64,000 nucleotides of DNA from Dehalococcoidia bacterium. Lineage in GTDB: Bacteria; Chloroflexota; Dehalococcoidia; Lucifugimonadales; UBA3495. Positions 5,243 to 60,498 of the stretch are shown in pieces. A model generated the notes under the pieces. It searched no databases, had not been told where the DNA came from, and saw only the letters and a list, made by a program, of their open reading frames with translations. Position 1 is the stretch's first letter; each line of letters begins with the position of its first letter. Position numbers and translations under genes: made by a program. Where the stretch lies: positions 2,845,695-2,909,694 of the forward strand of contig OY761449.1 of NCBI GenBank assembly GCA_963664375.1, read 5' to 3'.

Positions 5243-5281
5243 TCACCCCCACCCTAGCCCTCCCCCTGAGGGGGAGGGAAC
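5243..5281 (-). repeat. 38-bp REP-like hairpin/G-tract unit
   Basis: tcacccccaccctagccctccccctgagggggagggaac. The G-rich strand is the minus strand. Confidence 0.9.
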
Positions 5282-5341
5282 TTTGTGTGAGATAGTCCAT
5301 AAGCGAGTTCAGCACCGGGGCAGGCGGAGGCCAGCAAAACG

Positions 5342-6406
5342 CTACCAGTCGGGGGAGTGGTCGCGGACATCGTTGTGGGTCAAGCGCCGCTGGTTGGCGC
5401 CGTCGGAGTCCATCACCAGGATTTCGGTCTCTCCGAACAGGTCGGACACGAAAGCAATCCTGTCTCCGTCTGGCGACCATACCGGCTCGGTGTCGGCGGA
5501 GTCGTTGATGGTGAGCCGTTGCGGCGGTTCGTCGTCGTTGGCGTTGGCCGTGTAAATCTCGGCGTTGCCGTCTCTGGTGGTCACAAAGGCCAGGGTATCG
5601 CCGTCCGGCGCCCACGCTGGAGAGTGTTCCTCTTGGTCCGAATTGAGCCAGCGCACCTCGGTTACTTTGCCGCGCCAGTCATCCCCGTCCTCCGGCATGA
5701 CCAGGTAGATGCCGTTGTTGCCGAAGTCGTCCCGAACGAAGGCGATGGCATCCCCGTCCGGCGACCACACCGGATCGCTGTCCACCCCTTCGGTGAGCCG
5801 CAGCAGATTCACGCCGTCGGGGTTGCGGAGCCACAGCCCCTGTTCGTCCTCGCCGCCCCCGCGCGAGAACACCAGCCACTGCCCGTCGGGAGACCAGTCG
5901 CCCAGCATTTCCCGGTCATCCGACGAGGTGATGCGTATCGTCAGAAACTGCGCTGGATCGTCCTCCCCGAACCTGGCTACGAAAACGTCCGACTGGCCTT
6001 CCACCTCAGACACGTAAGCCAGCCCGTCGCCCTCCGAGTTCCAGCGGGGCGATCCCTCGTTTCCTGCCGGGTCGCCGCCGGGCGACATGCGGAGTTCCAG
6101 CCGCTCTTCGCCGGTTCCGAGAACAACCACGTCCCGGTTGCCGTCGGTGGAAACCACGTAGGCGATGCGCTCTCCGTCCGGTGACCAGGTGGGCGCGAAT
6201 GCCGGATCCGGGCCGGAAACAACCCGTTCGTTCTCGCCGGATTCAACGTCGACGGTATACACCTCAGCATCGCCATTCGTCTCCGAGACGTAGACCAACG
6301 GCCGGTCGGAGCCGCCGAACCCGCCGCACGCTACCAGCAGGCAGATTGCCAGCAGGACGGCCGCCAGTACGAATACCCGTCCACCCTCCGGTCTCACCAG
6401 GGACAT
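5342..6406 (-). CDS. TolB-like PD40 beta-propeller lipoprotein
   Basis: 354 aa with a signal peptide and lipobox (LLVACGG). It has repeated SPDG(D/E/Q)xIAFV PD40 motifs, and GGAGG precedes the ATG. Confidence 0.8.
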   Translation of the reverse strand: MSLVRPEGGRVFVLAAVLLAICLLVACGGFGGSDRPLVYVSETNGDAEVYTVDVESGENERVVSGPDPAFAPTWSPDGERIAYVVSTDGNRDVVVLGTGEERLELRMSPGGDPAGNEGSPRWNSEGDGLAYVSEVEGQSDVFVARFGEDDPAQFLTIRITSSDDREMLGDWSPDGQWLVFSRGGGEDEQGLWLRNPDGVNLLRLTEGVDSDPVWSPDGDAIAFVRDDFGNNGIYLVMPEDGDDWRGKVTEVRWLNSDQEEHSPAWAPDGDTLAFVTTRDGNAEIYTANANDDEPPQRLTINDSADTEPVWSPDGDRIAFVSDLFGETEILVMDSDGANQRRLTHNDVRDHSPDW

Positions 6407-6656
6407 TCACGCCTCCCCAATTCCAACACGTATCCCAGTCCACAACGGTCCGGTCACACGACACCAGTCCCGTCGAATTATAGCTGCATGAACGGGGCGC
6501 TTTTCATTGCGCGAGTAAGCGAATTGTGTGGATTTGGCAGCCTTGACAGCAGGAACGGCCCTATCTAGCCTATAAGGGCGCCGCCTCCTGTACCCGGTAC
6601 GGGCGGCGCCGGGGGAGCAATTCACCCGCTAGAGCACGGACAGGGAGGCAGTTGCC

Positions 6657-7907
6657 ATGAAAGCGTTGGTTGGAGCGACATTGATTGACGGCACCGGCGG
6701 CCCGGTCGTCGAGGACTCCGTAGTGCTGCTGGACGGCGACATTATCAGCGGCGTGGGTGTCCGCGGCGCGGTGCCCATCCCGCCCGGCGCGGAGGTTATC
6801 GACATTTCAGGGCTGACGTTGCTGCCCGGCCTGATCGACACCCACGACCACCTGGCCGACAAGAATTACAGCCTGCTCTCCCGGTGGGAAATCGAGGAGC
6901 CCGCATCCCTGGCGCACCTGAAAACCGCCAGGGCCATCGAGGACTCGCTGGCCGCCGGTTACACCACCATCCGCGACGCTGGCGGGCTGGACGCCGGGTT
7001 CAAGCAGGCCATCGCCGAGGGGCTGATCAACGGCCCGCGCCTGGTCTGCGCCGTGTCCATCATCTCGCCCACGGGCGGCATCGGCGACCGCGTCGCGCCC
7101 TCCGGCCACCGCACGGCCTACGCCACCGACCCCATGCGCCCCGTCGGCGTCGCCAACGGCCCCGAGGCCGTCCGCAGCATTGTCCGCGAGATGGTGCGCG
7201 TGGGCGCGGACGTCATCAAGTTCGCCACCACCGGCGGCGCAAGCTCCCGCCAGGGCCACGGCCCCAAGGACATCGCCTTCGGCCCCGATGAGGTTAAGGC
7301 GCTGGTAGACGAGGCTACCAACCTCGGCAAGCTGACCATGTGCCACGCCCTTGGCGGGCCGGGCCTGCGCATGGCCATCGAGAACGGCGTGGGTTCCGTG
7401 GAGCACGGCTGCTACCTGTCCGAGGACCCCGACCTGCTCAAGATGATGGCCGACAACAACACCTTTTTCACTCCCACCTTTGAGGTCTACGAATTCCACT
7501 CAACCATCAGCGCGCCCCACGTCAAGGCCCGGGCCGAGTCGCTGATGCACATCCACCAGGAAAGCCTGCACCGGGCCTTGGAGTCGGGCGCAAAGATTAC
7601 CGCGGGCACCGACGCTGGCGGATTCGTACACGGAGACAACGCCCGCGAGATCGAGCTGATGGTGGAACGCGGACTCACGCCGATGCAGGCCATACAGACC
7701 GCCACCGGCTGGGCCGCCGAGTGCATCGGCCTCGGCAAAGAGATCGGCGCCATCGAAAAGGGCAAGCAGGCCGACCTGCTGGTAGTTGACGGCGACCCGC
7801 TGCGGAACATCGGCGTGCTGCGCGACCGGGAGGCCATCAAGCTGGTGATGCGGGCTGGCGTGGCCTACGTGGACAGGGTTCCAGCCGCTGCGCCGGTGGC
7901 GGCATAG
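6657..7907 (+). CDS. amidohydrolase family protein (metal-dependent hydrolase)
   Basis: 416 aa. LLPGLIDTHDHL supplies the HxH metal ligands, with GTDAG/HGDN motifs downstream. GGGAGG precedes the ATG. Confidence 0.8.
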   Translation: MKALVGATLIDGTGGPVVEDSVVLLDGDIISGVGVRGAVPIPPGAEVIDISGLTLLPGLIDTHDHLADKNYSLLSRWEIEEPASLAHLKTARAIEDSLAAGYTTIRDAGGLDAGFKQAIAEGLINGPRLVCAVSIISPTGGIGDRVAPSGHRTAYATDPMRPVGVANGPEAVRSIVREMVRVGADVIKFATTGGASSRQGHGPKDIAFGPDEVKALVDEATNLGKLTMCHALGGPGLRMAIENGVGSVEHGCYLSEDPDLLKMMADNNTFFTPTFEVYEFHSTISAPHVKARAESLMHIHQESLHRALESGAKITAGTDAGGFVHGDNAREIELMVERGLTPMQAIQTATGWAAECIGLGKEIGAIEKGKQADLLVVDGDPLRNIGVLRDREAIKLVMRAGVAYVDRVPAAAPVAA

Positions 7908-7928
7908 AGTAGGCACGAGTCTACTGGC

Positions 7929-8687
7929 ATGCGCTTCCATGTATTGACGCTGTTCCCGGAGGCTTTCGGCCAGCCCCTCCAATTCAGCATCGTGGCAAGG
8001 GCTGTGCAGCGGGGGCAGGTCGCCATTGAGGTCACCGACATCCGCGACCACACCCACGATGCCCACGGCACCGCCGACGACTACCAGTTCGGTGGGGGAC
8101 ATGGCATGGTGATGAAGCCGGAGCCGGTGTTCGAGGCTACCGAGTCGGCTCTGTCCGGCTATACGGGTAAGCAGCGTGAGGAGATACCCGTCATCCTGAC
8201 GACTCCGCAGGGCGAACTGCTAACGCAGCGGCTAGTGGAAGAGCTGTCGGAAGCGCCCGCCATCGCCATCATCTGCGGCCACTACGCGGGGGTGGACGAG
8301 CGCATCGCCGAGGGCCTTGCAACGCGGCAGGTCAGCACCGGCGACTACGTGCTTACCGGCGGCGAGCTGCCCGCCATGATCATCATTGACGCTGTAACCC
8401 GGCTCCTTCCCGGCGTGGTAGGCTCACCGGGCAGCGTCGCCGGGGATTCCATCACCACGGGCCTGCTGCAACACCCGCTATACACGAGGCCAGCCGAGTA
8501 TCGCGGCATGCCCGTGCCCGACGTGCTGCTGTCCGGGCATCACGCCGAAATCGACCGATGGCGGCGGCGCAAGGCGCTGGAGCGCACCCTGGCCCGCCGC
8601 CCGGACCTGCTGCCGTCGGCCCCGCTGACGGAGGAAGACCGTCGCTACCTTGCCGGGCTGGGATACGAAGAAACGCCCTCGCCCTAA
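7929..8687 (+). CDS. trmD: tRNA (guanine37-N1)-methyltransferase
   Basis: 252 aa: MRFHVLTLFPEAF...DDYQFGGGHGMVMKPEP...LTGGELPAMIIIDAVTRLLPGV. Confidence 0.9.
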   Translation: MRFHVLTLFPEAFGQPLQFSIVARAVQRGQVAIEVTDIRDHTHDAHGTADDYQFGGGHGMVMKPEPVFEATESALSGYTGKQREEIPVILTTPQGELLTQRLVEELSEAPAIAIICGHYAGVDERIAEGLATRQVSTGDYVLTGGELPAMIIIDAVTRLLPGVVGSPGSVAGDSITTGLLQHPLYTRPAEYRGMPVPDVLLSGHHAEIDRWRRRKALERTLARRPDLLPSAPLTEEDRRYLAGLGYEETPSP

Positions 8688-8710
8688 CCCTCTGCTACTG
8701 GGAGAGGGAA
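8673..8710 (-). repeat. REP-like unit overlapping the trmD 3' end
   Basis: acgccctcgccctaaccctctgctactgggagagggaa. The trmD TAA stop (8685-8687) lies inside the ccctaaccc segment. Confidence 0.8.
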
Positions 8711-8740
8711 AGATTTGGGGAGCGGGAACTTGTGAATAAG

Positions 8741-9247: not shown

Positions 9248-9314
9248 TAATGACGAGGTCAGTCGCGTCATTATTTTCCGTGAGCTTTTCAACCTGGCAT
9301 GCTTGGCAAGAGCA

Positions 9315-9412
9315 GCGTCATTCCGGCGAAAGCCGGAATCCAGAAGGTTCTTCCACCCCAAAATCGTCCGATTGTCGGGCGGTCTGGATTCCGGCTTTCG
9401 CCGGAATGACGT
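9315..9412. repeat. paired-hairpin element (two inverted 'gtcattccggcgaaagccggaatcc' units)
   Basis: gcgtcattccggcgaaagccggaatccaga ... tctggattccggctttcgccggaatgac. Each arm is itself a hairpin. Confidence 0.85.
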
Positions 9413-9461
9413 GTTGTGGGGCTTGCCACCATTAAGATTCAATTGCCCTATGCTAATGATA

Positions 9462-9634
9462 GGTATTCTCAACGTGTGTTGGTATTGAACGCGATTTGTC
9501 TGCTTGGCCCCGCCGCGTAGGGGCGCACAGCCGTGCGCCCGTGTCTGCGCAGGAGAGAATTGTGCCGGAACCGGGGGCCAGGGCGCACGGCTGTGCGCCC
9601 CTACATGGGAATACCAACACACGCTTAGAATATC
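9462..9634. mobile_element. MITE-like composite with about 25-bp terminal inverted repeats enclosing two 'gtaggggcgcacNNNNgtgcgcccctac' palindromes
   Basis: The left end ggtattctcaacgtgtgttggtatt pairs with the right end aataccaacacacgcttagaatatc. The internal palindromes are at 9517-9540 and 9581-9604. Confidence 0.55.
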
Positions 9635-9649
9635 TAATGATAATATTCG

Positions 9650-9678
9650 TTGACGAAAATCGTAGCAGGGCATAGACT
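9650..9678 (+). promoter_or_regulatory. candidate promoter for the PHP-domain gene
   Basis: TTGACG (9650-9655), 17 nt, then TAGACT (9673-9678). Confidence 0.3.
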
Positions 9679-10430: not shown

Positions 10431-10448
10431 ACCCAAGGCCGTTTAGCA

Positions 10449-10562
10449 GTTCCCTCTCCCTCCGGGGGAGGGTTAGGGTGGGGGCGTCTCCCTGTGGCTG
10501 CAAATTCGCCAATGCCAGCGATTTCACCCTCGCCCCAACCCTCTCCCTCAAGGGAGAGGGAG
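10449..10562. repeat. inverted pair of REP-like units
   Basis: gttccctctccctccgggggagggttagggtgggggcg (10449-10486) faces tcaccctcgccccaaccctctccctcaagggagagggag (10524-10562). Confidence 0.9.
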
Positions 10563-10683
10563 AGTTAAGGGGCCTTGGCCTACCCCCATTCGCTTTTGCT
10601 GACATTTCGCCGTCGAATCCAGGCCAGCTCCGTGCTACACTTTATGCCGCGTCGCCCCAAGTCCGGGCGCAAACGGGAGTGCG

Positions 10684-13623
10684 ATGGCCTCGATTCACCA
10701 ACTGATTTCCCCTCTCGATCAGGTCTACGTTTCGCTGGACCTGGAGACCACCGGCCTCGACTACGAACGGGACACCATCCTCGAAATAGGGGCGGTGCGA
10801 TTTCGCGGCGACGAGGTGCTGGACACCTTCGAGACCTTCGTTAACCCCGGCCGGCCAATCCCCGACCACATACAGCGACTCACTGGCATCCAGCCCAGGC
10901 AGGTGGAGCGGGCGCCCGCGTTTCCGGTAATCGTCGGCGACTTTGCCGAGTTTTTGGGGCCTCACCCCGTTGTCGGGCATAACATCCAGTTCGATCTGCG
11001 GTTTCTGTCCTCCCACGGCCTTCCGGTAGCCAACGCCGCCTTCGACACCATGGATCTGGCGACCGTGTTCCTGCCCAGTTCGCGGCGCTACACGCTCAAG
11101 CACATCGCCGACCAATTCGGCGTGGAACTGCGCAATCACCGGGCGCTGGACGACGCCGTGGGAAGCAAGGAAATATTCCTGCGGCTGCTGCGCCTGGCGG
11201 CGGAGCAGGACGGCGGACTGCTGGCCTACATGTCGGAGATCGCCCGCCGCAGCAACTGGCCGCTCCACCCGGCCCTGTCCGGCCTTGCCGCCGCGCAATC
11301 CACGTCACCGGCATCCGTAGGGCCAACCGGCCTGAACATGGAGCTGCTGGCCCAGAGAGTAGAAGCGCCGGAAAAGCGGCGTCCGGCTGACGATCTGGAA
11401 CACGTGGGCGTTGAGCAAATTCACGGTATGCTGGGCCCGGAGGGCCCCTTCGCCAAGGCATTCGACGGTTTCGAGCACCGCCCGGAGCAGGAAGAAATGC
11501 TCGACACCGTGTCCGACGCCATCTACAACCAGCGCCACTTAGCGGTTGAGGGCGGCACCGGCGTGGGCAAGTCCCTGGCCTACCTGCTTCCGGCGGCCCT
11601 GTTCGCCGTGTCCCGGGGCCAGCGGGTGGTAGTCTCAACCAACACCATCAACTTGCAGGAGCAACTGATCGGCAAGGACATCCCGGCCCTCAAGCAAGTG
11701 CTGGAGGATTCCGGCCTGATGGAGCCCGGCGCACTGAAGGTCGCGCTGCTTAAGGGCAAGGCCAACTACCTCTGCCTGCGCCGCTGGCAGCAACTCTCGC
11801 GCAGCGAACTGTTGACCGCGGACGACGCCAAGCTCCTGTCCAAGACGGCGGTATGGCTGCAAGACACGGCGACAGGCGACCGCGGCGAAATCAACCTGAA
11901 CGGGCGCGAGGTACCAACCTGGAACCACGTATCGGCGGGCGAAAAGGGTTTCTGCCTGGACATGCGGGACGGCTCGCCCTGTTTCCTCCGTGCGGCCCGA
12001 CAGAGGGCCGAGCAGGCCCATATCATCGTCGTCAACCACGCCCTGCTCATGAGCGACATGGTGTTCGAGGGGCTGATACCGGAATACGACACGGTCATCA
12101 TCGACGAGGCCCACCACCTGGAAGAGGCCGCGACCAACCAGTTCGGTTTCGAGATACAGCAGGGCGAGTTCGACCGTATCTGGGAACCGGCCGGGAGGCT
12201 GTGCCTGGGCGTCATGCAGGCGCTGACAGACAACGATCTGGAATCGGGAATCGCTGACACCGGCCAGTCGGTCGCCGCCGCAGTGGAGGCGGAAGCGCCC
12301 CGGCTACGGGAAACGTGGGGACAACTCTTCACTGCCATCGAGGGACTCCACGCCAGCCAGCGAAAGGGGAGAAACCAGCAGCGCCGCCCGAACCGGAGCC
12401 AGGAGGCTGCGCCCTCTCAGGGAGACCAGAACCAGCTCCTTATAACCCCCGATGTCCGCAACTCCCCTGCCTGGTTCGACCTGTATCTGGCGTGGGAGAA
12501 CCTGAACACCCGGCTGGGACAGGCGGGAATCGCCCTACGAAACGTCCGCAACTTCCTCGACGCCAACCGGCTCCCGGCGGCGCAGGACCAGCAAGCCCTG
12601 ATGATGGAGGCGGCCTCGCTGGCCGACGGTCTCGAGGAACTGTCCATGCGTCTGGGTTCCGTCTTGGGCGAAGCATCACCTGCGACGGCCGAACAGGGTT
12701 CAGGCGGCGACGCTTCTGACCAAGCCATACACTGGGTAAACGTGAACCCGTCCCAAGGAACCATCTCCCTGCACTCCGCGCCGCTGGACGTCAGCCCGAT
12801 ACTGGCCGAGAAGCTGTTTGCCGAGAAGGATTGCGTCATCCTTACCAGCGCCACGCTGACCGCCGGGGGCAGTTTCAATTTCCTCAAGCGGCGGCTCGGG
12901 CTGGAGGACGACGCAGGCGAGTTGCTGGTGGGTTCGCCATTCGACTACGAGCGGGCGGCCCAAGCCCTGATTCCCGACGACATGCCCCAGCCCAACGCCA
13001 ACGGCTACGTGGCCGCCACTGCCGACGTGCTGGCCCAACTGGGGCAGCGGTTGCAGGGACGCACCATGGCGCTGTTCACGTCCCACTCATCACTGCGCGC
13101 GGTTGCCCAGCGGTTGCGTTCACAACTGGAGCCCCACGGCATTCCCGTCCTGGCGCAGGGGGTAGACGGGTCGGCGCCATCCGTCATGGCGGCGTTCAGC
13201 GAGGAGCCGGGGAGCGTGCTGCTTGGGACGGCCAGTTTTTGGGAGGGCGTGGACATGCCGTCGGGCCTGCTCAAGGCCCTGGTTATCACTCGTCTGCCGT
13301 TCCAGGTTCCCAGCGACCCCATCGTGCAGCGCCGCTCCGGGCTGTATGACGACCCGTTCAACGAGTATTCCATTCCCAACGCGATACTGCGGTTCCGGCA
13401 GGGCCTGGGCCGGTTGATTCGCAACAAGCACGACAAGGGAACCATCGTGGTGCTGGATTCCAGGATTTCCAGCCACGGATACGGGCAGGCGTTCCGCGAC
13501 TCGATGCCGCCGTGTCATCACACTCCGTGCTTTACCTCCAACGTGGGCATGCTGGCGGAAATGTGGCTCGATGGCGGCCGACAGGCCCGGCAGGGAGGAA
13601 GGCGTGGCAACCGCGGACGTTAG
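10684..13623 (+). CDS. dinG: DinG-family ATP-dependent helicase with an N-terminal DnaQ-like 3'-5' exonuclease domain
   Basis: 979 aa. The Exo I motif is YVSLDLETTGL, the Walker A is GGTGVGKSLAYLLPA, and the DEAH box is IIDEAHHLEE. GGGAG precedes the ATG. Confidence 0.85.
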   Translation: MASIHQLISPLDQVYVSLDLETTGLDYERDTILEIGAVRFRGDEVLDTFETFVNPGRPIPDHIQRLTGIQPRQVERAPAFPVIVGDFAEFLGPHPVVGHNIQFDLRFLSSHGLPVANAAFDTMDLATVFLPSSRRYTLKHIADQFGVELRNHRALDDAVGSKEIFLRLLRLAAEQDGGLLAYMSEIARRSNWPLHPALSGLAAAQSTSPASVGPTGLNMELLAQRVEAPEKRRPADDLEHVGVEQIHGMLGPEGPFAKAFDGFEHRPEQEEMLDTVSDAIYNQRHLAVEGGTGVGKSLAYLLPAALFAVSRGQRVVVSTNTINLQEQLIGKDIPALKQVLEDSGLMEPGALKVALLKGKANYLCLRRWQQLSRSELLTADDAKLLSKTAVWLQDTATGDRGEINLNGREVPTWNHVSAGEKGFCLDMRDGSPCFLRAARQRAEQAHIIVVNHALLMSDMVFEGLIPEYDTVIIDEAHHLEEAATNQFGFEIQQGEFDRIWEPAGRLCLGVMQALTDNDLESGIADTGQSVAAAVEAEAPRLRETWGQLFTAIEGLHASQRKGRNQQRRPNRSQEAAPSQGDQNQLLITPDVRNSPAWFDLYLAWENLNTRLGQAGIALRNVRNFLDANRLPAAQDQQALMMEAASLADGLEELSMRLGSVLGEASPATAEQGSGGDASDQAIHWVNVNPSQGTISLHSAPLDVSPILAEKLFAEKDCVILTSATLTAGGSFNFLKRRLGLEDDAGELLVGSPFDYERAAQALIPDDMPQPNANGYVAATADVLAQLGQRLQGRTMALFTSHSSLRAVAQRLRSQLEPHGIPVLAQGVDGSAPSVMAAFSEEPGSVLLGTASFWEGVDMPSGLLKALVITRLPFQVPSDPIVQRRSGLYDDPFNEYSIPNAILRFRQGLGRLIRNKHDKGTIVVLDSRISSHGYGQAFRDSMPPCHHTPCFTSNVGMLAEMWLDGGRQARQGGRRGNRGR

Positions 13624-15207: not shown

Positions 15208-15326
15208 CTCATGATAGGAGTTACGCGGTTGGACAAAAATTCCCTCCTCCTTGAGGGGGAGGGTTAGGGTGGGGGTGAAATCCTCGCATCAGACACCGTA
15301 TCTAACTGCGTAAGTCCTATCATGAG
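15208..15326. mobile_element. MITE-like element B, copy 1 (REP core plus inverted ends)
   Basis: ctcatgataggagttacgcggttgg...REP...gcatcagacaccgta...ctaactgcgtaagtcctatcatgag. It shares its internal sequence with the copies at 26.9 and 56.5 kb. Confidence 0.7.
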
Positions 15327-17494: not shown

Positions 17495-17496
17495 TC

Positions 17497-26890: not shown

Positions 26891-26988
26891 CGAATAGAGC
26901 TTACGCAGTTGAGCAAAAATTCCCTCTCCCTTGAGGGAGAGGGTGAGGGTGAGGGTGAAACCCCAACTGCGTAACTCCTAAACGAATA
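26891..26988. mobile_element. MITE-like element B, copy 2 (shorter)
   Basis: cgaatagagcttacgcagttgagcaaaaat-REP-ccccaactgcgtaactcctaaacgaata. Confidence 0.65.
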
Positions 26989-27040: not shown

Positions 27041-27080
27041 GTTCCCTCTCCCTCCGGGAGAGGGTCAGGGTGAGGGCGTC
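27041..27080 (+). repeat. REP-like unit
   Basis: gttccctctccctccgggagagggtcagggtgagggcgtc. Confidence 0.9.
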
Positions 27081-28329
27081 CCCTTACTCTCGCAGGAACG
27101 AAAGATGCCGCTTTGACGTTCACCTTGTCCGCAAAAGGCGATTGTCACACACCCTCCAAGAATCTGGTTTTCTAAATCTAACGGCACTCCCAAAGGCGTT
27201 TGAGCAGGAACATCCATTGATTACCGCCAAATGGCATCTGTGGCTGGGTATCGCTGTCAGCGTGGTAATGCTGCTATTCTTGGCCTGGCAGGTCTATCAG
27301 TTTGACGACCCATCGGGGCTGATCGACGAGCTGGCCGAGGCCAATTACATCTTCCTGATCCCGGCCGTAGCGGTCTATTTCGTCGGCGTCTGGTTCCGTG
27401 CCTTGCGCTGGCAATTCCTGTTGAACCCGCTGCGGTACTTCCCCGTGAAACGGCTCTATCCGGTGGTGGTCATCGGCTACACTGCCAACAACCTGCTGCC
27501 CATGCGGCTCGGCGAGTTGGTGCGCTCCTACTACCTGGCGCGGCAGGAAAACTTCAGCGCCAGCTCCGCCCTCGGTAGCGTTGCCGTCGAGCGGGTGTTC
27601 GACGGCCTGACCCTGATCGTACTGGTGGCCGTAACGGTGCCCTGGCTGCTACTGCTGGGAGCGTTTGACTGGACCGCCGGAGTATCGCAGGGAACCGCCG
27701 CGGTATTGGCGGGGGTCGTGCTGTTCGTGTTCGGCGGGTTCCTGCTGCTTTTCACCCTCCTGGCCGTGTGGCAGGGATTCTCCGACCTGGTGCAGCGGCT
27801 GCTTTCCATGCTGCCGGGCAGGCTCGGCGGTCTGGCGCTGCGTTTCTACATTTCATTCGCCGCGGCGCTGAGCATCCTGGACTCTCCGCGCAAGCACCTG
27901 GCATTGATCGCCCTCTCGCTGCCCATCTGGTTCTGTGAATTCATTGTCTACTACCTGGTCTCCTACACCTTCGATATAGGCTCTCACTTCGATTCGCAAG
28001 TGACGTACATTCTCGCAATCGCCCTGCTGACCGCCACGTCCAACCTGGCAACTGGCATACCCAGCGCCATCGGCGGCATCGGCCCCTTCGAGGTCGTCGC
28101 CCAGCAAACCCTGGTGGCCCTCGGCGTGGGCGTGGGTGTGGCCGTTGATTACGCCCTGGTGGTGCACCTGGTGGCATTGTGGCTGCCCGTGAACGCCGTG
28201 GGGCTGGCGATCCTCTGGAAGCAGAACTTGAACCTGCGGCAGCTGGTCCGTGACCCGACGCCGGAGGAAAGCGGGCCGGTTGCCGAGTCGCCTTCCGTGA
28301 ATTCATCCCCCGCGGGAGGAAGCTCATGA
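27070..28329 (+). CDS. UPF0104 / LPG-synthase-TM (flippase-like) membrane protein
   Basis: The pattern FRALRWQFLL...GYTANNLLPMRLGELVRSYYL fits the family. The first about 50 codons of the track ORF run through a REP unit, so the true start may be TTG 27217. Confidence 0.65.
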   Translation: MRASPYSRRNERCRFDVHLVRKRRLSHTLQESGFLNLTALPKAFEQEHPLITAKWHLWLGIAVSVVMLLFLAWQVYQFDDPSGLIDELAEANYIFLIPAVAVYFVGVWFRALRWQFLLNPLRYFPVKRLYPVVVIGYTANNLLPMRLGELVRSYYLARQENFSASSALGSVAVERVFDGLTLIVLVAVTVPWLLLLGAFDWTAGVSQGTAAVLAGVVLFVFGGFLLLFTLLAVWQGFSDLVQRLLSMLPGRLGGLALRFYISFAAALSILDSPRKHLALIALSLPIWFCEFIVYYLVSYTFDIGSHFDSQVTYILAIALLTATSNLATGIPSAIGGIGPFEVVAQQTLVALGVGVGVAVDYALVVHLVALWLPVNAVGLAILWKQNLNLRQLVRDPTPEESGPVAESPSVNSSPAGGSS

Positions 28330-29651: not shown

Positions 29652-29674
29652 ACAACGGCCAGAGTCATCTGGCA

Positions 29675-29712
29675 GTTCCCTCTCCCTTCGGGAGAGGGTT
29701 AGGGTGAGGGCG
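29675..29712 (+). repeat. REP-like unit
   Basis: gttccctctcccttcgggagagggttagggtgagggcg. Confidence 0.9.
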
Positions 29713-29750
29713 TCCTCTCTTTCGACGCCAAACTGCTGAAGGGCAGGATT

Positions 29751-29778
29751 TCACCCCCACCCTAGCCCTCCCCCTGAG
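29751..29778 (-). repeat. left half of a REP-like unit interrupted by the IS
   Basis: tcacccccaccctagccctccccctgag ends at the IS boundary. Confidence 0.8.
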
Positions 29779-30885
29779 ACGCTTGATGCACATTAACAAC
29801 TGAAAAGATCAAGGAAAGCGCCGGGGATGGCTTATGCTGACCTTACCCGCTCAAAGGAGGCCGGCAGCCATGAACCTGGACACTTTCATGGTGGCATTGT
29901 ATACCATCGTGGATGACCTCTATCAGGCCAATATCGCCCCCCTTATGCCGGTTCGCTGCGGCCCCAAGCCACGGCTCTCTGACAGCGAGATGCTGACCCT
30001 GGCCCTTTGCGCCCAGTGGCAGGGCGCATCGGAACGGGCCTTCCTCCGTTACGCCGCCCAGCACTGGCGCGGCTATTTCCCCAACCTGACCACGCAAAGC
30101 GCCTGCAACCGCCGCATCCGCAAACTGGCTTGGGCCTTGGCCGCGCTGGCTCAGGAGGCGGCCCGGGAACTGGCGGCTCACGCCGCCCCCTTTCAGGTGG
30201 TGGATACCGTGCCGCTGCCCCTGATGCGCCGTTGCCGCGGCCGGAAACACAAGCTCTTTGGAACCGAAGCCGACATAGGCCGGGGCGGCGCCGACCGGGA
30301 CTGGTATTACGGCTGCAAGCTGATGCTGGCGGCCACGAATCAAGGGGTGATCACCGGCTTCCTGCTGTCTCCGGCCAGCACCGAAGACCATTGGGCCGCC
30401 GAAGCCTTCTTCTGCTGGCGGGCCGACCCTCTGGGTACTCCCGTATCCCCGCAGGAAATGCCGCCCCGCCGCAACGGGCAAAAACACGTGGGACCCAAAG
30501 GCCCGCAATGGCCGCAGTACGGCCCAGGGGAGCCGGCGGCGGCGCCGTACCTGGGGGACAACGGTTTCTTCGGGGCCGGATGGCAACCGCGCTGGCTACG
30601 CCAGTATGGAGCGGCGGTGCTGGCGCCCGGCAATTACGTCGGGGAGAGGGCGAAACACTGGCGAAGCAGGCACCGCTCGCGGTTGCAGGTGGTGGAGACG
30701 GTCAACGGGTCGCTGGAGCAGGTCTTCCACCTGCATTTCCCCGAGGCCCGCAGCGTGTGGGGGCTGCTGACCCGGGTGTCGGCCAAGGTGGCGGCTCTGA
30801 ATCTGGGGATCCAAGTCAACCGGCAATTGGGCCGCCCCGATTTGGCTCTCGCCACTCTTTTCAGTTGTTAATGTACATCAAGCGT
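29779..30885 (+). mobile_element. IS982-family-like insertion sequence (1107 bp)
   Basis: The 29-bp terminal inverted repeats acgcttgatgcacattaacaactgaaaag and cttttcagttgttaatgtacatcaagcgt match at 28 of 29 positions. There is a single transposase ORF and the ends begin with AC. Confidence 0.8.
29834..30871 (+). CDS. DDE transposase (IS982-like)
   Basis: LDTFMVALYTIVDDLY, LSDSEMLTLALCAQWQG, VDTVPLPL, YYGCKLMLAATNQGVITGF, YLGDNGF, VVETVNGSLEQ. An alternative start is ATG 29870. The stop lies inside the right inverted repeat. Confidence 0.75.
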   Translation: MLTLPAQRRPAAMNLDTFMVALYTIVDDLYQANIAPLMPVRCGPKPRLSDSEMLTLALCAQWQGASERAFLRYAAQHWRGYFPNLTTQSACNRRIRKLAWALAALAQEAARELAAHAAPFQVVDTVPLPLMRRCRGRKHKLFGTEADIGRGGADRDWYYGCKLMLAATNQGVITGFLLSPASTEDHWAAEAFFCWRADPLGTPVSPQEMPPRRNGQKHVGPKGPQWPQYGPGEPAAAPYLGDNGFFGAGWQPRWLRQYGAAVLAPGNYVGERAKHWRSRHRSRLQVVETVNGSLEQVFHLHFPEARSVWGLLTRVSAKVAALNLGIQVNRQLGRPDLALATLFSC

Positions 30886-30900
30886 TCAGGGGGAGGGGAC
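30886..30900 (-). repeat. right half of the interrupted REP-like unit
   Basis: tcagggggaggggac directly abuts the right IS end. Confidence 0.8.
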
Positions 30901-31015
30901 TTTTGAGATGGTTTCTAAATGTTGCAAATATTGTGCCGTCGGGTACAATCTAGCGTAGCCAAACGGGGCAAGCCATCCGAGTGGGCAATGCCCGGACGAT
31001 CCAAAGGAGCATACA

Positions 31016-32305: not shown

Positions 32306-32430
32306 TTCTCCCTCTCCCTTGAGGGAGAGGGTTGGGGGGAGGGTGCAATCGCGGGCGTCAGTACCATTCGACAAGCTCATGGTGAGCCTGTCGAACCACG
32401 CCCTAACCCTCCCCCGGAGGGAGAGGGAAC
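32306..32430. repeat. inverted REP pair flanking a 'ttcgacaagctc...gtgagcctgtcgaacc' repeat
   Basis: ttctccctctcccttgagggagagggttggggggaggg ... ccctaaccctcccccggagggagagggaac. It sits at the convergent ends of the MBL gene and mutL. Confidence 0.85.
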
Positions 32431-32445
32431 TTCAAAGGGCCTTGC

Positions 32446-34821: not shown

Positions 34822-34961
34822 GTGTTTGCAAACCACAGACGGGCCAGAAATAGCCTGCAAAATCCCCTCTCCCTTGAGGGAGAGGGTTAGGGTGAGGGTG
34901 AACTCCCTGCATCAAATGACGCGGCTGTGCCCAATTCTTCCCGCCAATTGAGTTTGCAAAC
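34822..34961. repeat. REP core (34862-34900) flanked by gtttgcaaac palindromes
   Basis: gtttgcaaac occurs at 34824-33 and 34952-61. The core is atcccctctcccttgagggagagggttagggtgagggtg. Confidence 0.6.
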
Positions 34962-35326: not shown

Positions 35327-35443
35327 GGTGTCCTCTTCTTGCGATTTGAGACCGCGCTTGGCTGATGTGACCGTCGCCATTTTATACCGGCGAGCGGCCT
35401 CCGAAAAACAGCACCCGCGCCAATTGGCGGGGTTTTTCAATAA

Positions 35444-35470
35444 TTCCCTCTCCCTCAATGGAGAGGGAGA
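35444..35470. repeat. REP hairpin core without the G-tract tail
   Basis: ttccctctccctcaatggagagggaga. Confidence 0.7.
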
Positions 35471-38069: not shown

Positions 38070-38126
38070 GACAAGGCGTTCCAGCGGGGAATGATAGTCC
38101 CCATTCTATAACAAGAATATATGCGC

Positions 38127-38267
38127 CTAAGAGTGTGTTTAATAAGTTCCCTCTCCCTCCGGGGGAGGGTTAGGGTGGGGGCGTACCCCTGATTGCTCAG
38201 GAACGGCGGATGCGTCTGAAACCCGCTCTTTGTCAGTGAACCGAACCTATTAAACACTCTCTTAGAG
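38127..38267. mobile_element. MITE-like element A, copy 1 (141 bp)
   Basis: Inverted ends are ctaagagtgtgtttaataagtt and aacctattaaacactctcttag. The interior (REP plus cgtacccctgattgctcaggaacg...) is nearly identical to 60226..60364. Confidence 0.8.
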
Positions 38268-38343
38268 GGTTTTTCCAAAGCCCATTTCACCCGCAATGAG
38301 CAGGCTGTGTTGATATATGTCATTCCTGATAACACGAAGAGGA

Positions 38344-38380
38344 CGCCCTCACCCTAACCCTCTCCCGGAGGGAGAGGGAA
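38344..38380 (-). repeat. REP-like unit
   Basis: cgccctcaccctaaccctctcccggagggagagggaa. Confidence 0.9.
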
Positions 38381-38480
38381 TTGGTCGCACACCCCCTTTT
38401 AAGGCGATGAGTTCACTTGAAGAAAAAAGGCCCCTTCTCCTGTGGGAAAGGGCCGGTATTTCGGTGGGTGCTGAGGCGAG

Positions 38481-42173: not shown

Positions 42174-42210
42174 TTTCCCGCTTCCCTTGGGAAAGGGTTA
42201 GGGTGAGGGC
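42174..42210 (+). repeat. degenerate REP-like unit between the nuoF-like and nuoG-like genes
   Basis: tttcccgcttcccttgggaaagggttagggtgagggc. Confidence 0.7.
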
Positions 42211-42226
42211 CTTCCCCTGCCGGATG

Positions 42227-48319: not shown

Positions 48320-48486
48320 ACGCCGCCTGAACCGCCGGAGACGCAAGGGGTTGATCCCCGCGTCCATCGCTGGTGGGCCCTGCCCATGCACTTCTACCAT
48401 GCCGATGTTCTAGGTAATGGGGAATCACGCCCCGCCATAGGGAATGTCGTCAAATTGGCTTCCCGGAGGTGCAGCGGGTTCCTATC

Positions 48487-49576: not shown

Positions 49577-50510
49577 CCTGCTCTCTCCTGTCTCCCGGTG
49601 TGCGTCCGTATTGTGGCCGTCCGGGACCACTGCCTCCTTGCGGGCGTCCGTATTGAGGCCGTCCGGAACCACTGTCTCCCGGTGGGCGTCCGTATTGAGG
49701 CCGTCCGGGGCCACTGTCTCCCGGTGACCGAGCGGGTTGAGGCCGTCCGGGACCACTGTCTGCTTGTGAGCGATCCGGTTGAGGCCGCCGCGAGTCGCCG
49801 GGTGTACCCCGTCCGCCCTGGGGCTGCCGGGGGGCATTGGCGGCGTCGGCGTTGCGGGGGCGGAGCCGCGGAGTGTCCTCGCCCAAGTCCTCGGGGCCGT
49901 AATCGCCGACGTTTTCGCGGCGGTACGGCGGCGCGTAGCCGCTGGGCGCAGCCCGGTTAGTTCCCTCTCCCTGCGAGGGAGGGTTAGGGTGGGCGCGTCC
50001 TTCCCCGCGGGCCGCCTGCTCGTCGAACGTCTCCTTGGCGATGCGGAAGGCGTTTACCGCGGCGGGCATCCCTCCGTAGAAAATCATCTGCGCGATGATC
50101 TCGGAGATTTCCTCCTGGGTAACGCCGATGTGCAGCGCGCCGGTAATGTGCCGCTTGATCATCTGGGGGCTGTGTCCCAGGACCACCAGCGCGGCGATGG
50201 TGCACAGGCTGCGGGTGCGCAGGTCGACGGCGGGGCGGTTGTAAATCTCGCCGTAGATTACCTGGTCCACCAACTGCATCACGTCGGGAGCAAGCTCCAT
50301 CATGGCGGCGGGCGGCTCAGGGTTGTTGTCCGGGCCGTAGTAGAGCATCCTGAATTCGGCGGCAGCCTCTTCCAGGTCTACTTCCTCCAGGACTAATTCG
50401 TACCCCTCGTCATCCCCTAAATCTCCGGCTTCCGCGTCGTCCTCGTCCGGGGGCTGATAGGGACGCAGATAGGGGTCATCCTCATCGTATTGAGTTGTCA
50501 CTGCCTTCAC
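49320..50510 (-). CDS. carboxymuconolactone decarboxylase (AhpD-like) domain protein with an uncertain 3' end
   Basis: The CMD core is DLRTRSLCTIAALVVLG...HITGALHIGVTQEEISEIIAQMIFYGGMPAAVNAF. After the domain the frame stays open through a REP unit and the 42-bp array, then 257 nt into the next gene. Confidence 0.55.
   Translation of the reverse strand: MKAVTTQYDEDDPYLRPYQPPDEDDAEAGDLGDDEGYELVLEEVDLEEAAAEFRMLYYGPDNNPEPPAAMMELAPDVMQLVDQVIYGEIYNRPAVDLRTRSLCTIAALVVLGHSPQMIKRHITGALHIGVTQEEISEIIAQMIFYGGMPAAVNAFRIAKETFDEQAARGEGRAHPNPPSQGEGTNRAAPSGYAPPYRRENVGDYGPEDLGEDTPRLRPRNADAANAPRQPQGGRGTPGDSRRPQPDRSQADSGPGRPQPARSPGDSGPGRPQYGRPPGDSGSGRPQYGRPQGGSGPGRPQYGRTPGDRREQDETRVHRNRQHGQSDGRQSDQGRPPANRSRPASRGRNQPAGDGRRMGGQSQGGRPGQRRGPNQPPRSQGRRGGNSGRGRNPGGRR
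49586..49800. repeat. 42-bp tandem repeat, about 5 copies
   Basis: The anchor ggccgtccgg recurs at 49615, 49657, 49699 and 49741, with a degenerate copy at 49783. The unit is about gcgtccgtattgaggccgtccggaaccactgtctcccggtgg. Confidence 0.85.
49959..49996 (+). repeat. REP-like unit inside the CMD-domain ORF
   Basis: agttccctctccctgcgagggagggttagggtgggcgc, translated in frame as ...AHPNPPSQGEGTN.... Confidence 0.8.
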
Positions 50511-50522
50511 CTTGCTGGGGTT

Positions 50523-50561
50523 TCACCCCCACCCTAACCCTCCCCCTGAGGGGGAGGGGAC
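50523..50561 (-). repeat. REP-like unit
   Basis: tcacccccaccctaaccctccccctgagggggaggggac. Confidence 0.9.
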
Positions 50562-50570
50562 TTGTCGTCC

Positions 50571-53982: not shown

Positions 53983-53995
53983 AATGTCCGCCGTA

Positions 53996-54100
53996 ATTCC
54001 CCTGTCCCTATGGGAAAGGGTCGCCAAAAATCCCCTCTCCCTCTGTGGAGAGGGGTGCCACAAATCCCCTCTCCCTCTGGGAGAGGGTCAGGGTGAGGGC
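53996..54100 (+). repeat. three tandem REP-like hairpins; the last carries a full G-tract tail
   Basis: cccctgtccctatgggaaaggg, cccctctccctctgtggagagggg, cccctctccctctgggagagggtcagggtgagggc. Confidence 0.85.
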
Positions 54101-54108
54101 ATAAAGTA

Positions 54109-55721: not shown

Positions 55722-55723
55722 CA

Positions 55724-56440: not shown

Positions 56441-56458
56441 CCGGATAGAATTCAAACA

Positions 56459-56572
56459 TACAAGACTTACGCAGTTGAGCAAAAATCCCCTCCCCCTCGA
56501 GGGGGAGGGTCAGGGTGGGGGTGAAATCCCACGCATCAGACACCGTACCCAGTTGCGTAACTCCTAACACAA
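56459..56572. mobile_element. MITE-like element B, copy 3
   Basis: acaagacttacgcagttgagcaaaaat-REP-gtgaaatcccacgcatcagacaccgtacccagttgcgtaactcctaac. Confidence 0.7.
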
Positions 56573-56661
56573 TCGAATATCCGACGCCGGAGACAGCGGG
56601 TCCCATCGGGGTAATGGCCAGGCCGCCCGCCGAGGCGCGACGACAAAAACAGGGATTTCGC

Positions 56662-56698
56662 ATGCCCTGCGCCGCGTCTTTATGCCGGTGCAGGGCAT
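56662..56698 (+). promoter_or_regulatory. hairpin in the rplJ 5' leader (possible L10 autoregulatory leader)
   Basis: ATGCCCTGC-19 nt-GCAGGGCAT. The assignment is by position only. Confidence 0.25.
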
Positions 56699-56729
56699 TT
56701 GCTTTCATAGTCATTTCGGGAGGTGAGAA

Positions 56730-57257: not shown

Positions 57258-57299
57258 CGAGGGCTTTAACCCAAATCCGAAGAAACGAGGAATGAAGTA

Positions 57300-57686
57300 A
57301 TGCCACTGACCAAAGACGAAATCATCAGCGCCATCAAGGAAATGAACGTGGTAGACCTGGCCGACCTGGTCAAGTCGCTGGAAGAGGAATTCGGCGTGAC
57401 TGCCGCCGCGCCGATGGCCGTCGCTGCCGCCCCCGTAGCGGGAGATGCCGCCGCCGCGCCGGCCGAGGAAGAGAAGACCGAGTTCGAGGTTCGCATCGTC
57501 GAGATCGGCCCCAACAAGATCAACGTCATCAAGGCCGTGCGGGAAGTGACCTCCCTCGGTCTGCGCGAAGCCAAGGAACTGGTGGAGTCCGCCCCGGCAG
57601 CCGTCAGGGAGGACGCCCCGAAGGACGAGGCCGACGGCATCAAGGCCAAGCTCGAAGAGGCTGGCGCCGTCGTCGAGGTAAAGTAG
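57300..57686 (+). CDS. rplL: 50S ribosomal protein L7/L12
   Basis: 128 aa: EFGV...AAAP linker...[24 protein letters not shown]. Confidence 0.95.
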
Positions 57687-57715
57687 CCACATCCGCAGGC
57701 GCCGGGAGGATTGTA

Positions 57716-57949
57716 ATGGGCCGCAAGGACAGGGAACGATTCCTCCGCATGAAAGCAGACAACCCGGACTACCAGGGTTTTCGGGGGACAACAGCCGTGG
57801 CCGTCCCACCCCCTCCTCCGGCGCCTGTAACCGAGTCGGTGGCCTGCTCGGTGTGCAACCGGCGCCGGAACGTCAACGTTGACAACCTGCCCGAAGACCG
57901 CGCCACCTACGTGTGCCTCAGGTGCCAGGAGGAGCAGCAGGCCGCATAG
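57716..57949 (+). CDS. small CxxC...CxxC zinc-ribbon protein
   Basis: 77 aa with GGGAGGA 6 nt before the ATG. It contains CSVCNRR...CLRCQEE and occupies the position usually taken by rpoB. Confidence 0.55.
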   Translation: MGRKDRERFLRMKADNPDYQGFRGTTAVAVPPPPPAPVTESVACSVCNRRRNVNVDNLPEDRATYVCLRCQEEQQAA

Positions 57950-57963
57950 ACAGTGGGTAACAA

Positions 57964-58001
57964 ATCCCCTCTCCCTCCGGGAGAGGGCCAGGGTGAGGGC
58001 G
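57964..58001 (+). repeat. REP-like unit
   Basis: atcccctctccctccgggagagggccagggtgagggcg. Confidence 0.9.
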
Positions 58002-58025
58002 TCCCCTCTCTCTCCAAATCAGGCC

Positions 58026-58074
58026 GGGACAAAAGACCGCGCCCGAAAGCGTTTCGGGCGCGGTCTTTTGTCCC
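58026..58074. terminator. perfect 23-bp-stem hairpin between convergent units
   Basis: gggacaaaagaccgcgcccgaaa-gcg-tttcgggcgcggtcttttgtccc. Confidence 0.5.
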
Positions 58075-58099
58075 ATCGAAGTGCCTCTGCATCACCTTT

Positions 58100-58139
58100 T
58101 CACCCCCACACTAACCCTCCCACTCAAGGGAGAGGGAAC
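58100..58139 (-). repeat. REP-like unit
   Basis: tcacccccacactaaccctcccactcaagggagagggaac. Confidence 0.85.
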
Positions 58140-58148
58140 TATTTGGCT

Positions 58149-58250
58149 CCGTCATTCCGGCGAAAGCAGGAATCCAGGAGTGTCCGATGGACAAAGCATG
58201 GTGAGTCCGTCGATTAGTTCTGGATTCCGGCTTTCGCCGGAATGACGGGT
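58149..58250. repeat. paired-hairpin element
   Basis: ccgtcattccggcgaaagcaggaatccagga ... tctggattccggctttcgccggaatgacggg. Confidence 0.85.
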
Positions 58251-58305
58251 TAATTTGACGGCACTGCTAATCCTGCGAATCCTGATTCAGGCAAACTCTC
58301 CTTCC

Positions 58306-59709: not shown

Positions 59710-59883
59710 TTCTAAATCCCACCTGGTATTGGGTGTTTGGGCGCGAACCATTTTAACAAACCGCCCGTGCCGAAAACGGATTGTCCGGTCATTGCCAGCC
59801 ATTTGGACTGACGGTACACTGGCCGTGAGACTGGCGCGCTTGGCCGTTTGCCAGGCACATACCATACGAATGAGAGACGGGAG

Positions 59884-60204
59884 ATGTCTTCAATGATCAA
59901 AGTAACGGTCCTGTACCCCAACGATGAGGGAAAGTCGTTCAATTTTGACTACTGGTCGGGAACTCACATGGAAGTCGTTCACCGGCTGCTGGATCCCATG
60001 GGCCTGCAACGCAGCGAACTGGAAAAGGGCGTTTCCGCCGCAGACCCCAACGCGCCAGCGCCTTTCGTCGCTATGGCCAATCTGTACTTCAACACCGCCG
60101 ACGAGGTGCACGAGGGCTTCAAGACGCACGGGCGGGAAATCCTGGGGGACATCAAGAATTACACCGACATCTCCCCCCAATACCAGATAAGCGAAATCCT
60201 CTAG
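59884..60204 (+). CDS. EthD-family protein
   Basis: ATG 59884 gives MSSMIKVTVLYPNDEGKSFNFDYWSGTHMEVV...NLYFNTADE, which fits the TIGR02118-like pattern. Confidence 0.65.
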   Translation: MSSMIKVTVLYPNDEGKSFNFDYWSGTHMEVVHRLLDPMGLQRSELEKGVSAADPNAPAPFVAMANLYFNTADEVHEGFKTHGREILGDIKNYTDISPQYQISEIL

Positions 60205-60225
60205 CGGGGAAACGGGCCGGAAATC

Positions 60226-60364
60226 CTGAGAGGGTGTTTAATAAGTTCCCTCTCCCTCCGGGGGAAGGTTAGGGTGGGGGCGTACCCCTGGTTGCTCAGG
60301 AACGACAGACGCTCCGGAAATCCGCTCTTTGACAGTGAACCGAACTTATTAAACACTCTCTGAG
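60226..60364. mobile_element. MITE-like element A, copy 2 (139 bp)
   Basis: cctgagagggtgtttaataagtt-REP-cgtacccctggttgctcaggaacgacagacgc...aacttattaaacactctctgag. A solo end-like copy lies at 60379-60397. Confidence 0.8.
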
Positions 60365-60460
60365 ATGGAGCGGGCGGCCTGAGAGGGTGTGTGACGTATC
60401 CATTTCGCTTTCTGATTTGCGGGATCTCTCAGGGGGCGGTGTTTCTGTAAGTACAGGGTA

Positions 60461-60498
60461 CGCCCTCACCCTAACCCTCTCCCGGAGGGAGAGGGAAC
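60461..60498 (-). repeat. REP-like unit
   Basis: cgccctcaccctaaccctctcccggagggagagggaac. Confidence 0.9.

Follow-up and report, generated by a model that had tools for sequence, protein, structure and literature searches.

The DNA considered here, 64,000 nucleotides from a Dehalococcoidia bacterium (Chloroflexota; contig OY761449.1, positions 2,845,695 to 2,909,694; hereafter the window), has a G+C content of 59-65% and carries, among other genes, trmD, tuf, rpmG and the ribosomal protein genes rplA, rplJ and rplL, together with an insertion sequence (IS) of the IS982 family and a dense repeat of about 38 bp. This repeat is a member of the BoxC/PIT/TM-ECO family, long known from Escherichia coli. 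Its 21-nt G-rich core, GGGAGAGGGTTAGGGTGAGGG, occurs 20 times at three or fewer mismatches, where dinucleotide shuffles lead one to expect 0.02 occurrences; an nhmmer profile built from core copies finds 23 copies at E<1e-5, and about five hairpin-only remnants (35441, 53995 and 54027, and two weaker ones, 38431 and 32247). The dense repeat reported in a preliminary description of the window is thus real, and every position listed there was recovered by the profile search as a copy or a hairpin-only unit. The accompanying statement that nearly every intergenic gap holds one was too strong: 21 of the 23 copies are intergenic, and they occupy 16 of the 44 gaps of at least 40 bp (36%). Searches against Rfam at gathering thresholds returned three tRNAs in the window and no match at the repeats. 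Spacing and anatomy rule out readings of the repeat as a CRISPR, a tandem array or an ordinary terminator.

The family was recognized through a full-text literature search with one arm of the repeat, GGGAGAGGG, which led to the study of Holder et al. 2015 (PMC4666352). In that study BoxC of E. coli, found anew as the "potential intrastrand triplex" (PIT) element, goes under the name TM-ECO, with the pattern CCCTCNCCC-N3-6-GGGNGAGGG-N3-GGGNGAGGG (PMC4666352). The strict pattern has 10 exact matches in the window, and 15 if position 6 of the third (Hoogsteen) arm is left free. The copy at 34861, with its loops and 3′ TGAA, matches sequence in 3237 of 5426 complete E. coli genomes at 100% over 41-42 nt, and it is the same sequence as entry 2 (TM-ECO no. 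2) in Table 1 of PMC4666352. It is because of this 42-nt identity and the fit to the published pattern that the repeat is assigned to a family already known. TM-ECO had been found in 262 genomes, all proteobacterial, with a maximum of 143 copies per genome and 23 in E. coli K-12; none adjoined mobility functions, and no association with phages was reported (PMC4666352).

The density in K-12 is 0.005 per kb, compared with 0.16 (strict pattern) or 0.36 (profile) in the window. The published record holder, with its 143 copies in a genome that we take to be about 4.8 Mb, would have about 0.03 per kb. The family has been known for about 30 years, and to our knowledge neither its function nor its mode of spread has been established. 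New here are the Chloroflexota host, a density 5 to 30 times the published values, the embedding of copies in elements resembling miniature inverted-repeat transposable elements (MITEs), and copies in phage contigs.

Comparison with relatives dates the expansion. The ribosomal protein L1 encoded here shares 90% identity with that of a Dehalococcoidia metagenome-assembled genome (OZ241328.1; locus L005) and 70-73% with those of other Dehalococcoidia/SAR202 assemblies. L005 is collinear with positions 43-64 kb of the window at 74-84% nucleotide identity, and this syntenic 20.7-kb locus of the nearest species contains no copy of the repeat: all eight window copies of the aligned region are absent, and the gaps tuf-rpmG, rplA-rplJ, after rplL and before the DUF885 gene, which hold copies in the window, are 100-300 bp shorter. 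No copy was found in five further Dehalococcoidia loci. The window copies are therefore recent insertions, and the repeat multiplied in this lineage after the split from the syntenic sister species.

Anatomy and fold of the unit

Each unit of about 38 nt comprises a pyrimidine arm (C) CCCTCTCCC, a loop, a purine arm (R) GGGAGAGGG, a loop TTA and a mirror arm (H) GGGTGAGGG; upstream of the core, conservation is limited to G-T-Y. The 9-bp hairpin of CCCTCTCCC and GGGAGAGGG noted earlier is present, and so, formally, is the G-quadruplex (G4) reading G3-N3-G3-N3-G3-N3-G3; copies of the repeat account for 19 of the window's 24 canonical G4 motifs. The arms exist in two states, an A-variant (CCCTCTCCC / GGGAGAGGG / GGGTGAGGG) and a lineage-specific G-variant with GGGGGAGGG / GGGTGGGGG (GGGGGAGGGTTAGGGTGGGGG; 10 copies). 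Position 4 of the purine arm and position 6 of the Hoogsteen arm agree in 22 of 23 copies (12 A/A and 10 G/G, one exception); among the 20 cleanest there are 11 A/A, 9 G/G and no mixed copies (Fisher test, p=6e-6). Both states are found in both 3′-tail subfamilies, CGTCCCCT and TGAAAT, and the pyrimidine arm follows the G-variant in part, with C in five copies and T (a T.G pair) in six. The rule holds, with little variation, in 85 further environmental copies, where A at position 4 is accompanied by A or T at position 6, and G at position 4 by G at position 6 in four of five types.

In an antiparallel purine-motif triplex the two covarying positions contact each other, so that A*A:T is exchanged for G*G:C. 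Judged from the sequence, the third G-rich arm would fit better as the Hoogsteen arm of an intrastrand triplex of class II (purine motif), in which a hairpin formed by the single-stranded DNA takes up a third strand, than as half of a G4, since the covarying positions are loop bases of the G4 and have no reason to covary there. Bacterial G4 regulatory motifs do share with the repeat four G3+N1-7 tracts, and the G-variant has the short 1-3-1 loops of such motifs; the motif of the repeat differs in being always coupled to a complementary C arm, in the covariation of its loop positions, in lacking a transcription-strand bias, and in that its E. coli version is a triplex by nuclear magnetic resonance (NMR). 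For the E. coli DNA oligonucleotides a G4 was considered and rejected on the strength of 18 sharp imino signals (PMC4666352). Between triplex and G4, covariation and published biophysics together favor the triplex as what probably shaped the third arm.

The situation in RNA is different. According to PMC4666352, RNA does not form purine-motif triplexes, which leaves it only the hairpin or the G4. ViennaRNA with its G4 term, a model that does not include triplexes, predicts the hairpin for A-variant RNA (-21.2 vs -12.6 kcal/mol) and the G4 for G-variant RNA (-26.5 vs -20.5 kcal/mol); since the prediction divides the two variants in this way, competition between hairpin and G4 may be physically possible for the 10 G-variant copies.

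Siting relative to genes and transcripts

The preliminary description proposed a 3′-end function for the unit, as an RNA hairpin/G4 switch in 3′ untranslated regions acting in termination, processing or mRNA stability, and listed orientation relative to gene ends among its checks, with a lack of bias genome-wide counting against the proposal. Its count of roughly two-thirds sense copies stands on the curated gene map (G-rich strand sense for 15 copies, opposite for 8), but does not differ from 50% (p=0.21), and co-directional gaps of environmental contigs likewise show no bias (63 sense and 66 antisense among 129 copies, p=0.86). The environmental set comprises 153 loci with the exact motif, in which gene strands were assigned by an amino-acid-composition caller with repeat units masked, a step that removes the caller's bias against divergent gaps. 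Units prefer gaps that hold a gene end, without strand preference: copies occupy 13 of 34 co-directional, 3 of 5 convergent and none of 5 divergent gaps in the window, and 97 of 284, 28 of 61 and 5 of 48, respectively, in the environmental loci (convergent vs divergent, p=5e-5).

Neighboring copies follow the order + then - in six of seven cases (p=0.001), and the Hoogsteen arms point inward in all six of these inverted pairs. Three pairs (10448/10520, 29674/29746 and 57962/58098) combine a CGT tail with a TGAAA(T) tail; two are CGT/CGT, and in 32307/32399 a TGCAAT tail faces a degenerate one. TM-ECO of E. coli forms inverted pairs of the same architecture and has no orientation bias relative to genes (PMC4666352). 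The earlier association of such pairs with convergent gene ends holds for 32307/32399 and 57962/58098, but 10448/10520 lies between co-directional genes.

In the proposed orientation the units lack the anatomy of an intrinsic terminator. No U-tract follows the hairpin on the G-rich strand, where the next sequence is TTAGGGTGAGGG (TTAGGG...). Terminator-like scores are confined to the C-rich orientation of two full copies (56484 and 57962) and one hairpin-only unit (54027). Work cited in PMC4666352 found PIT elements inactive as terminators in E. coli. Between the copies of the convergent pair 57962/58098 lies another hairpin, perfect and with T-runs (58026-58074), that would be the obvious terminator there; it looks like a bidirectional intrinsic terminator with a copy on each side.

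A strand-specific G4 switch draws some support from the share of G4 motifs that are repeat units, from the predicted G4 of G-variant RNA, from the failure of triplexes to form in RNA, from the enrichment in gaps with gene ends, and from the sense-oriented window copies, which appear to lie 7-98 nt behind stop codons. It is nevertheless very improbable. The units show no orientation bias in the window, in environmental contigs or in E. coli; the hairpin lacks a U-tract in the G-rich orientation and PIT elements lack recorded terminator activity; the covarying bases are G4 loop positions; the presence of units differs among strains; and the sister species lacks them at all eight orthologous sites, so that no conserved 3′-end function can rest on them. 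It is the lack of orientation bias, together with the lack of units in the sister species, that disfavors the switch.

The preference for gaps with gene ends is also open to another functional reading. REP elements are known to protect mRNA from 3′ exonucleases or to insulate transcription units, and a strand-symmetric GC hairpin might be kept here for the same reasons, the third arm being incidental. In favor of this, a hairpin of about -21 kcal/mol from either strand fits the missing orientation bias; convergent and co-directional gaps are enriched in units and divergent gaps depleted; cores are slightly more conserved than their flanks, and collapsed pairs (below) keep exactly a hairpin. 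Such a role is unlikely all the same: it leaves the conservation and covariation of the third arm and the near-invariant loops unexplained, the sister species manages without the units, and the bias in location would arise just as well if insertions in promoters were selected against. On the reading favored below, whatever influence the units have on transcripts would stem from the strand-symmetric GC hairpin (about -21 kcal/mol as RNA) and not from a strand-specific G4.

Strain variation and mobility

One metagenome assembly (ENA ERZ21830300) has seven loci of about 96% identity to the window, with repeat copies at mostly the same sites but also with structural differences. The copy at 26918 lies in an 84-bp segment, TTACGCAGTTG...CAACTGCGTAA, that is flanked by an 8-bp direct repeat, AACGAATA; L085 and L086 have the empty site with a single AACGAATA. 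The same frame (MITE-1) surrounds the copies at 15237 and 56484, and a second (MITE-2, with ends GAGAGTGTTTAATAAG) surrounds those at 38144 and 60243, where the unit adjoins the left inverted repeat at both loci. Inverted repeats, target duplication and presence/absence polymorphism, the features by which MITEs are recognized, are all found in MITE-1 at 26897-26980, and inverted repeats only in MITE-2. No further polymorphic MITE-1 insertion was seen in the seven strain loci, and target duplications are unrecognizable for the other MITE-1 and MITE-2 copies. Some copies, at least, would travel inside short elements that have inverted repeats at their ends and duplicate the target site.

Copies are also lost and rearranged. 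Where the window has its hairpin-only unit at 35441, L085 and L087 have a full inverted pair, and the pair 60243/60456 is collapsed to a hairpin in L004 in the same manner; such collapse corresponds to the "palindrome effect" described in E. coli (Holder et al. 2015, PMC4666352), and units would be lost when sequence is deleted from one palindromic core of a pair to the other, which leaves a plain hairpin. The copy at 34861 is missing in L085 and L086; an additional, duplicated copy is found near 32271-32343 in L086 and L087; and a pair in L002 stands in place of 928 bp of other sequence in the window. Nine of 11 structural breakpoints between strains fall in gaps that hold copies, where 36% would be expected (p=0.003).

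Insertion sequences are found at the same places. As the preliminary description had stated, the copy at 29746 is split: the IS982 element, with 30-nt inverted ends, lies inside its loop 1, and the copy is intact and without the IS in three other strains (L085-L087). In L086 an IS5-like element (DUF4096 + DDE_Tnp_1) lies between the pair 38144/38339. IS insertions seem drawn to the repeats, one in a loop and one within a pair. The 345-aa open reading frames (ORFs) at 29834 and 46107, considered as two copies of one IS, are unrelated, and only that at 29834 encodes an IS982 transposase.

Holder et al. 2015 proposed that the unit is a triplex-based hotspot of recombination or instability in DNA, maintained for generating variation. 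The clustering of strain differences at copy-bearing gaps, the collapsed pairs, the two IS insertions and the published E. coli comparison (PMC4666352) are consistent with this; on the other hand, any recently inserted mobile repeat associates with variation without a selected function, second-order selection for variability is weak, and no stable triplex was seen in vivo in E. coli. We regard maintenance for this purpose as distinctly improbable, if less so than the G4 switch.

The repeat also occurs outside the window. The exact motif is present in at least 120 JGI metagenome contigs and 33 IMG/VR contigs, ranging from 41 to 69% G+C, and environmental loci of at least 8 kb, each chosen for having one copy, have a median of two and up to five. 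Three IMG/VR contigs (L094, L098 and L103) have 3-5 copies per 10-15 kb by profile, situated between genes for phage tail, tape-measure, terminase and portal proteins (PHROG E-values 1e-20 to 1e-70); L103 has an inverted pair between its terminase and portal genes. In another contig (L184, Ga0209281_1000145, positions 1-1197), seven units stand in 1.2 kb as a BIME-like array in which TTA-loop and CCG-loop types alternate in opposite orientation.

The repeat can be compared with several known classes. With BoxC/PIT/TM-ECO (Hoyne et al. 2000; PMC4666352) it shares sequence, three-arm anatomy, intergenic siting, lack of orientation bias, inverted pairs of two subtypes, collapse of pairs to hairpins and structural variation among strains. 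It differs from the published family in its Chloroflexota host, the 262 reported hosts being proteobacterial; in the lineage-specific G-variant with its compensated triplet; in subtypes set by loop 1 and the 3′ tail, where those of E. coli are set by loop 2; and in its occurrence in elements with inverted repeats and target duplication and in phage contigs, neither of which the 2015 study reported. Like REP and BIME elements, it is a short GC-rich imperfect palindrome in many copies, sited in gaps with gene 3′ ends, often in inverted pairs or clusters and often an IS target; unlike these RAYT-mobilized elements, it lacks a conserved 5′ GTAG, has an extra third arm and is near-identical across phyla, whereas REPs are species-specific. 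No Y1 transposase or RAYT was found among the ORFs scanned in the window. Bacterial MITEs (for example Correia, ERIC and RUP) are resembled by MITE-1 and MITE-2, with their terminal inverted repeats and lengths of 84-145 bp, and by the one MITE-1 insertion polymorphism with its 8-bp duplication; the 38-nt unit itself differs in having neither inverted termini nor duplication, and in being an internal module of at least two unrelated MITE frames that also occurs as bare copies.

The reading that we favor, with a probability of roughly 0.6, is that a recently multiplied BoxC/PIT/TM-ECO member behaves here as a selfish REP/MITE-like element, capable of a triplex as single-stranded DNA. Copies would build up where insertions are tolerated, which means gaps with a gene 3′ end; divergent gaps, which hold promoters only, are avoided. 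That the element is selfish is our inference, and bare units probably spread by the same route as those borne in MITEs. A more far-reaching version, possible but less likely than not, sees in the BoxC/triplex unit a conserved module, either cargo or recognition site, of non-autonomous mobile elements whose family spans phyla; phages would take the unit from lineage to lineage, and within a genome it would multiply in MITE frames.

Several observations weigh against the favored reading. The bare 38-nt units show neither target duplication nor inverted repeats, and the clean insertion polymorphism with target duplication is a single one, in a composite element. The 64-kb window contains no matching transposase, and the ends of the IS982 element (ACGCTTGATGCACATTAAC...) are unlike those of MITE-1 and MITE-2. 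Divergence among strains is lower in the cores (4.5%) than in their flanks of 100 nt (6.4%; p=8e-4; orthologous alignments only), which hints at constraint or gene conversion that a pure junk element does not need. With regard to the fold, both G substitutions would stabilize a G4 as well, the covariation could stem from a few founder subfamilies and not from repeated selection, and in vivo dimethyl sulfate footprinting in E. coli, as published, saw no stable triplex (PMC4666352). The composition-based caller behind the environmental gap counts was validated on the window only, with 44 correct strand calls, none wrong and 14 genes missed.

Further features and implications

Coordinates of the copies and associated elements are collected in Table 1. 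Two copies touch coding sequence, as first described: loop 2 of the copy at 8672 supplies the trmD stop codon (TAA, 8685-8687), and the copy at 49958 lies in frame within an ORF, with the peptide downstream of it, PSGYAPPYRRENV, conserved in the sister species.

Table 1. Copies of the repeat and associated elements, in window coordinates
Feature	Position	Strand	Evidence
Copy, G-variant, TGAAA tail; arms CCCTCCCCC/GGGGGAGGG/GGGTGGGGG	5241..5284	-	nhmmer E=1.6e-12
Copy, degenerate purine arm, loop 2 supplies trmD stop codon	8672..8712	-	nhmmer profile
Copy, G-variant, CGT tail, left of inverted pair	10448..10491	+	nhmmer profile
Copy, A-variant, TGAAAT tail, right of inverted pair	10520..10563	-	nhmmer profile
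Copy, G-variant, within MITE-1 copy (~15208-15326)	15237..15283	+	nhmmer profile
MITE-1, 84 bp, inverted repeats TTACGCAGTTG ... CAACTGCGTAA, carries a copy, strain-dependent presence	26897..26980	+	
Copy, A-variant, within 84-bp MITE-1 (26897-26980)	26918..26963	+	nhmmer profile
Copy, A-variant, CGT tail	27041..27083	+	nhmmer profile
Copy, A-variant, CGT tail, left of pair	29674..29717	+	nhmmer profile
Copy, G-variant, cut in loop 1 by IS982; other arm 30886-30903	29746..29778	-	intact in L085-L087
IS982-family insertion sequence in loop of copy	29780..30885	+	NF033520 E=4e-36; 30-nt terminal inverted repeats; absent in L085-L087
Copy, A-variant, left of pair at convergent gene ends	32307..32350	+	nhmmer profile
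Copy, degenerate Hoogsteen arm, right of pair	32399..32432	-	nhmmer profile
Copy, A-variant, 42 nt identical to E. coli, absent in L085/L086	34861..34906	+	nhmmer profile
Hairpin-only unit, collapsed inverted pair	35441..35467	+	full pair at site in L085, L087
Copy, G-variant, within MITE-2 (38126-38269)	38144..38188	+	nhmmer profile
Copy, A-variant, CGT tail, right of pair	38339..38382	-	nhmmer profile
Copy, decayed pyrimidine arm; 8-9 differences in 43 nt between strains	42174..42216	+	nhmmer profile
Copy in frame within CMD-domain ORF (ORF on minus strand)	49958..49998	+	nhmmer profile
Copy, G-variant, TGAAA tail	50519..50563	-	nhmmer profile
Two hairpin-only units, tuf-rpmG gap	53995..54054	+	nhmmer profile
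Copy, A-variant, tuf-rpmG gap	54062..54104	+	nhmmer profile
Copy, G-variant, within MITE-1 (~56462-56566), rplA-rplJ gap	56484..56528	+	nhmmer profile
Copy, A-variant, left of pair at convergent gene ends	57962..58006	+	nhmmer profile
Perfect 23-bp-stem hairpin, T-runs on both sides, terminator-like, between pair copies	58026..58074	.	
Copy, G-variant with 2 substitutions, right of pair	58098..58138	-	nhmmer profile
Copy, G-variant, within MITE-2 (60225-60368)	60243..60287	+	nhmmer profile
Copy, A-variant, right of pair; pair collapsed to one hairpin in L004	60456..60500	-	nhmmer profile

The rplA-rplJ gap (56441-56729), the usual site of the L10 leader, gave no Rfam match; it holds a 105-bp MITE-1 with a copy of the repeat, and is about 110 bp shorter in the sister species. 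Other repeats share the window. A second palindromic family, CGTCATTCCGGCGAAAGCCGGAATCCAGA with an inverted partner, occurs at 9316-9411 and 58149-58248 and in L001 at 4608-4761; the copy at 58141-58301 is missing in L002 and L004, and L001 has an extra copy at window position 48443-48456 that is bounded by GGTGTCGTCAAATTA...TAATTTGACGACACC, so this family looks like another MITE. A third type, at 9460-9636, has palindromes GTAGGGGCGCACAGCCGTGCGCCC / GGGCGCACGGCTGTGCGCCCCTAC nested in a 27-nt inverted repeat; repeats of this type make up the gap of 430 bp behind the thioesterase gene, where there is no BoxC unit.

Tandem repeats are present as well: four 42-bp units at 49588-49797 encode PGDSGPGRPQYGRP-like peptides in a long ORF downstream of the CMD domain and overlap the annotated start region of an NAD_binding_2 gene, and 33-bp units lie inside an ORF at 2655-2783. 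Genes for DNA repair are well represented too; a DinG-type helicase (10684-13623) whose N-terminal domain is an RNase T-like exonuclease adjoins OGG and is located about 19-22 kb upstream of genes for MutL and MutS.

A survey that knew the family from Proteobacteria only (PMC4666352) is now joined by a Chloroflexota genome with an identical 42-nt sequence, partly in MITE-like elements, of which one is polymorphic with a target duplication. For surveys of bacterial G4s the window carries a warning, in that a large share of "canonical" motifs (here 19 of 24) can be this one repeat. How BoxC spreads is a question that dates from the 1990s. If the unit is indeed the cargo module of a mobile family, the polymorphic insertion with inverted repeats and an 8-bp duplication would be the first direct view of that spread, which becomes testable in a natural strain population.

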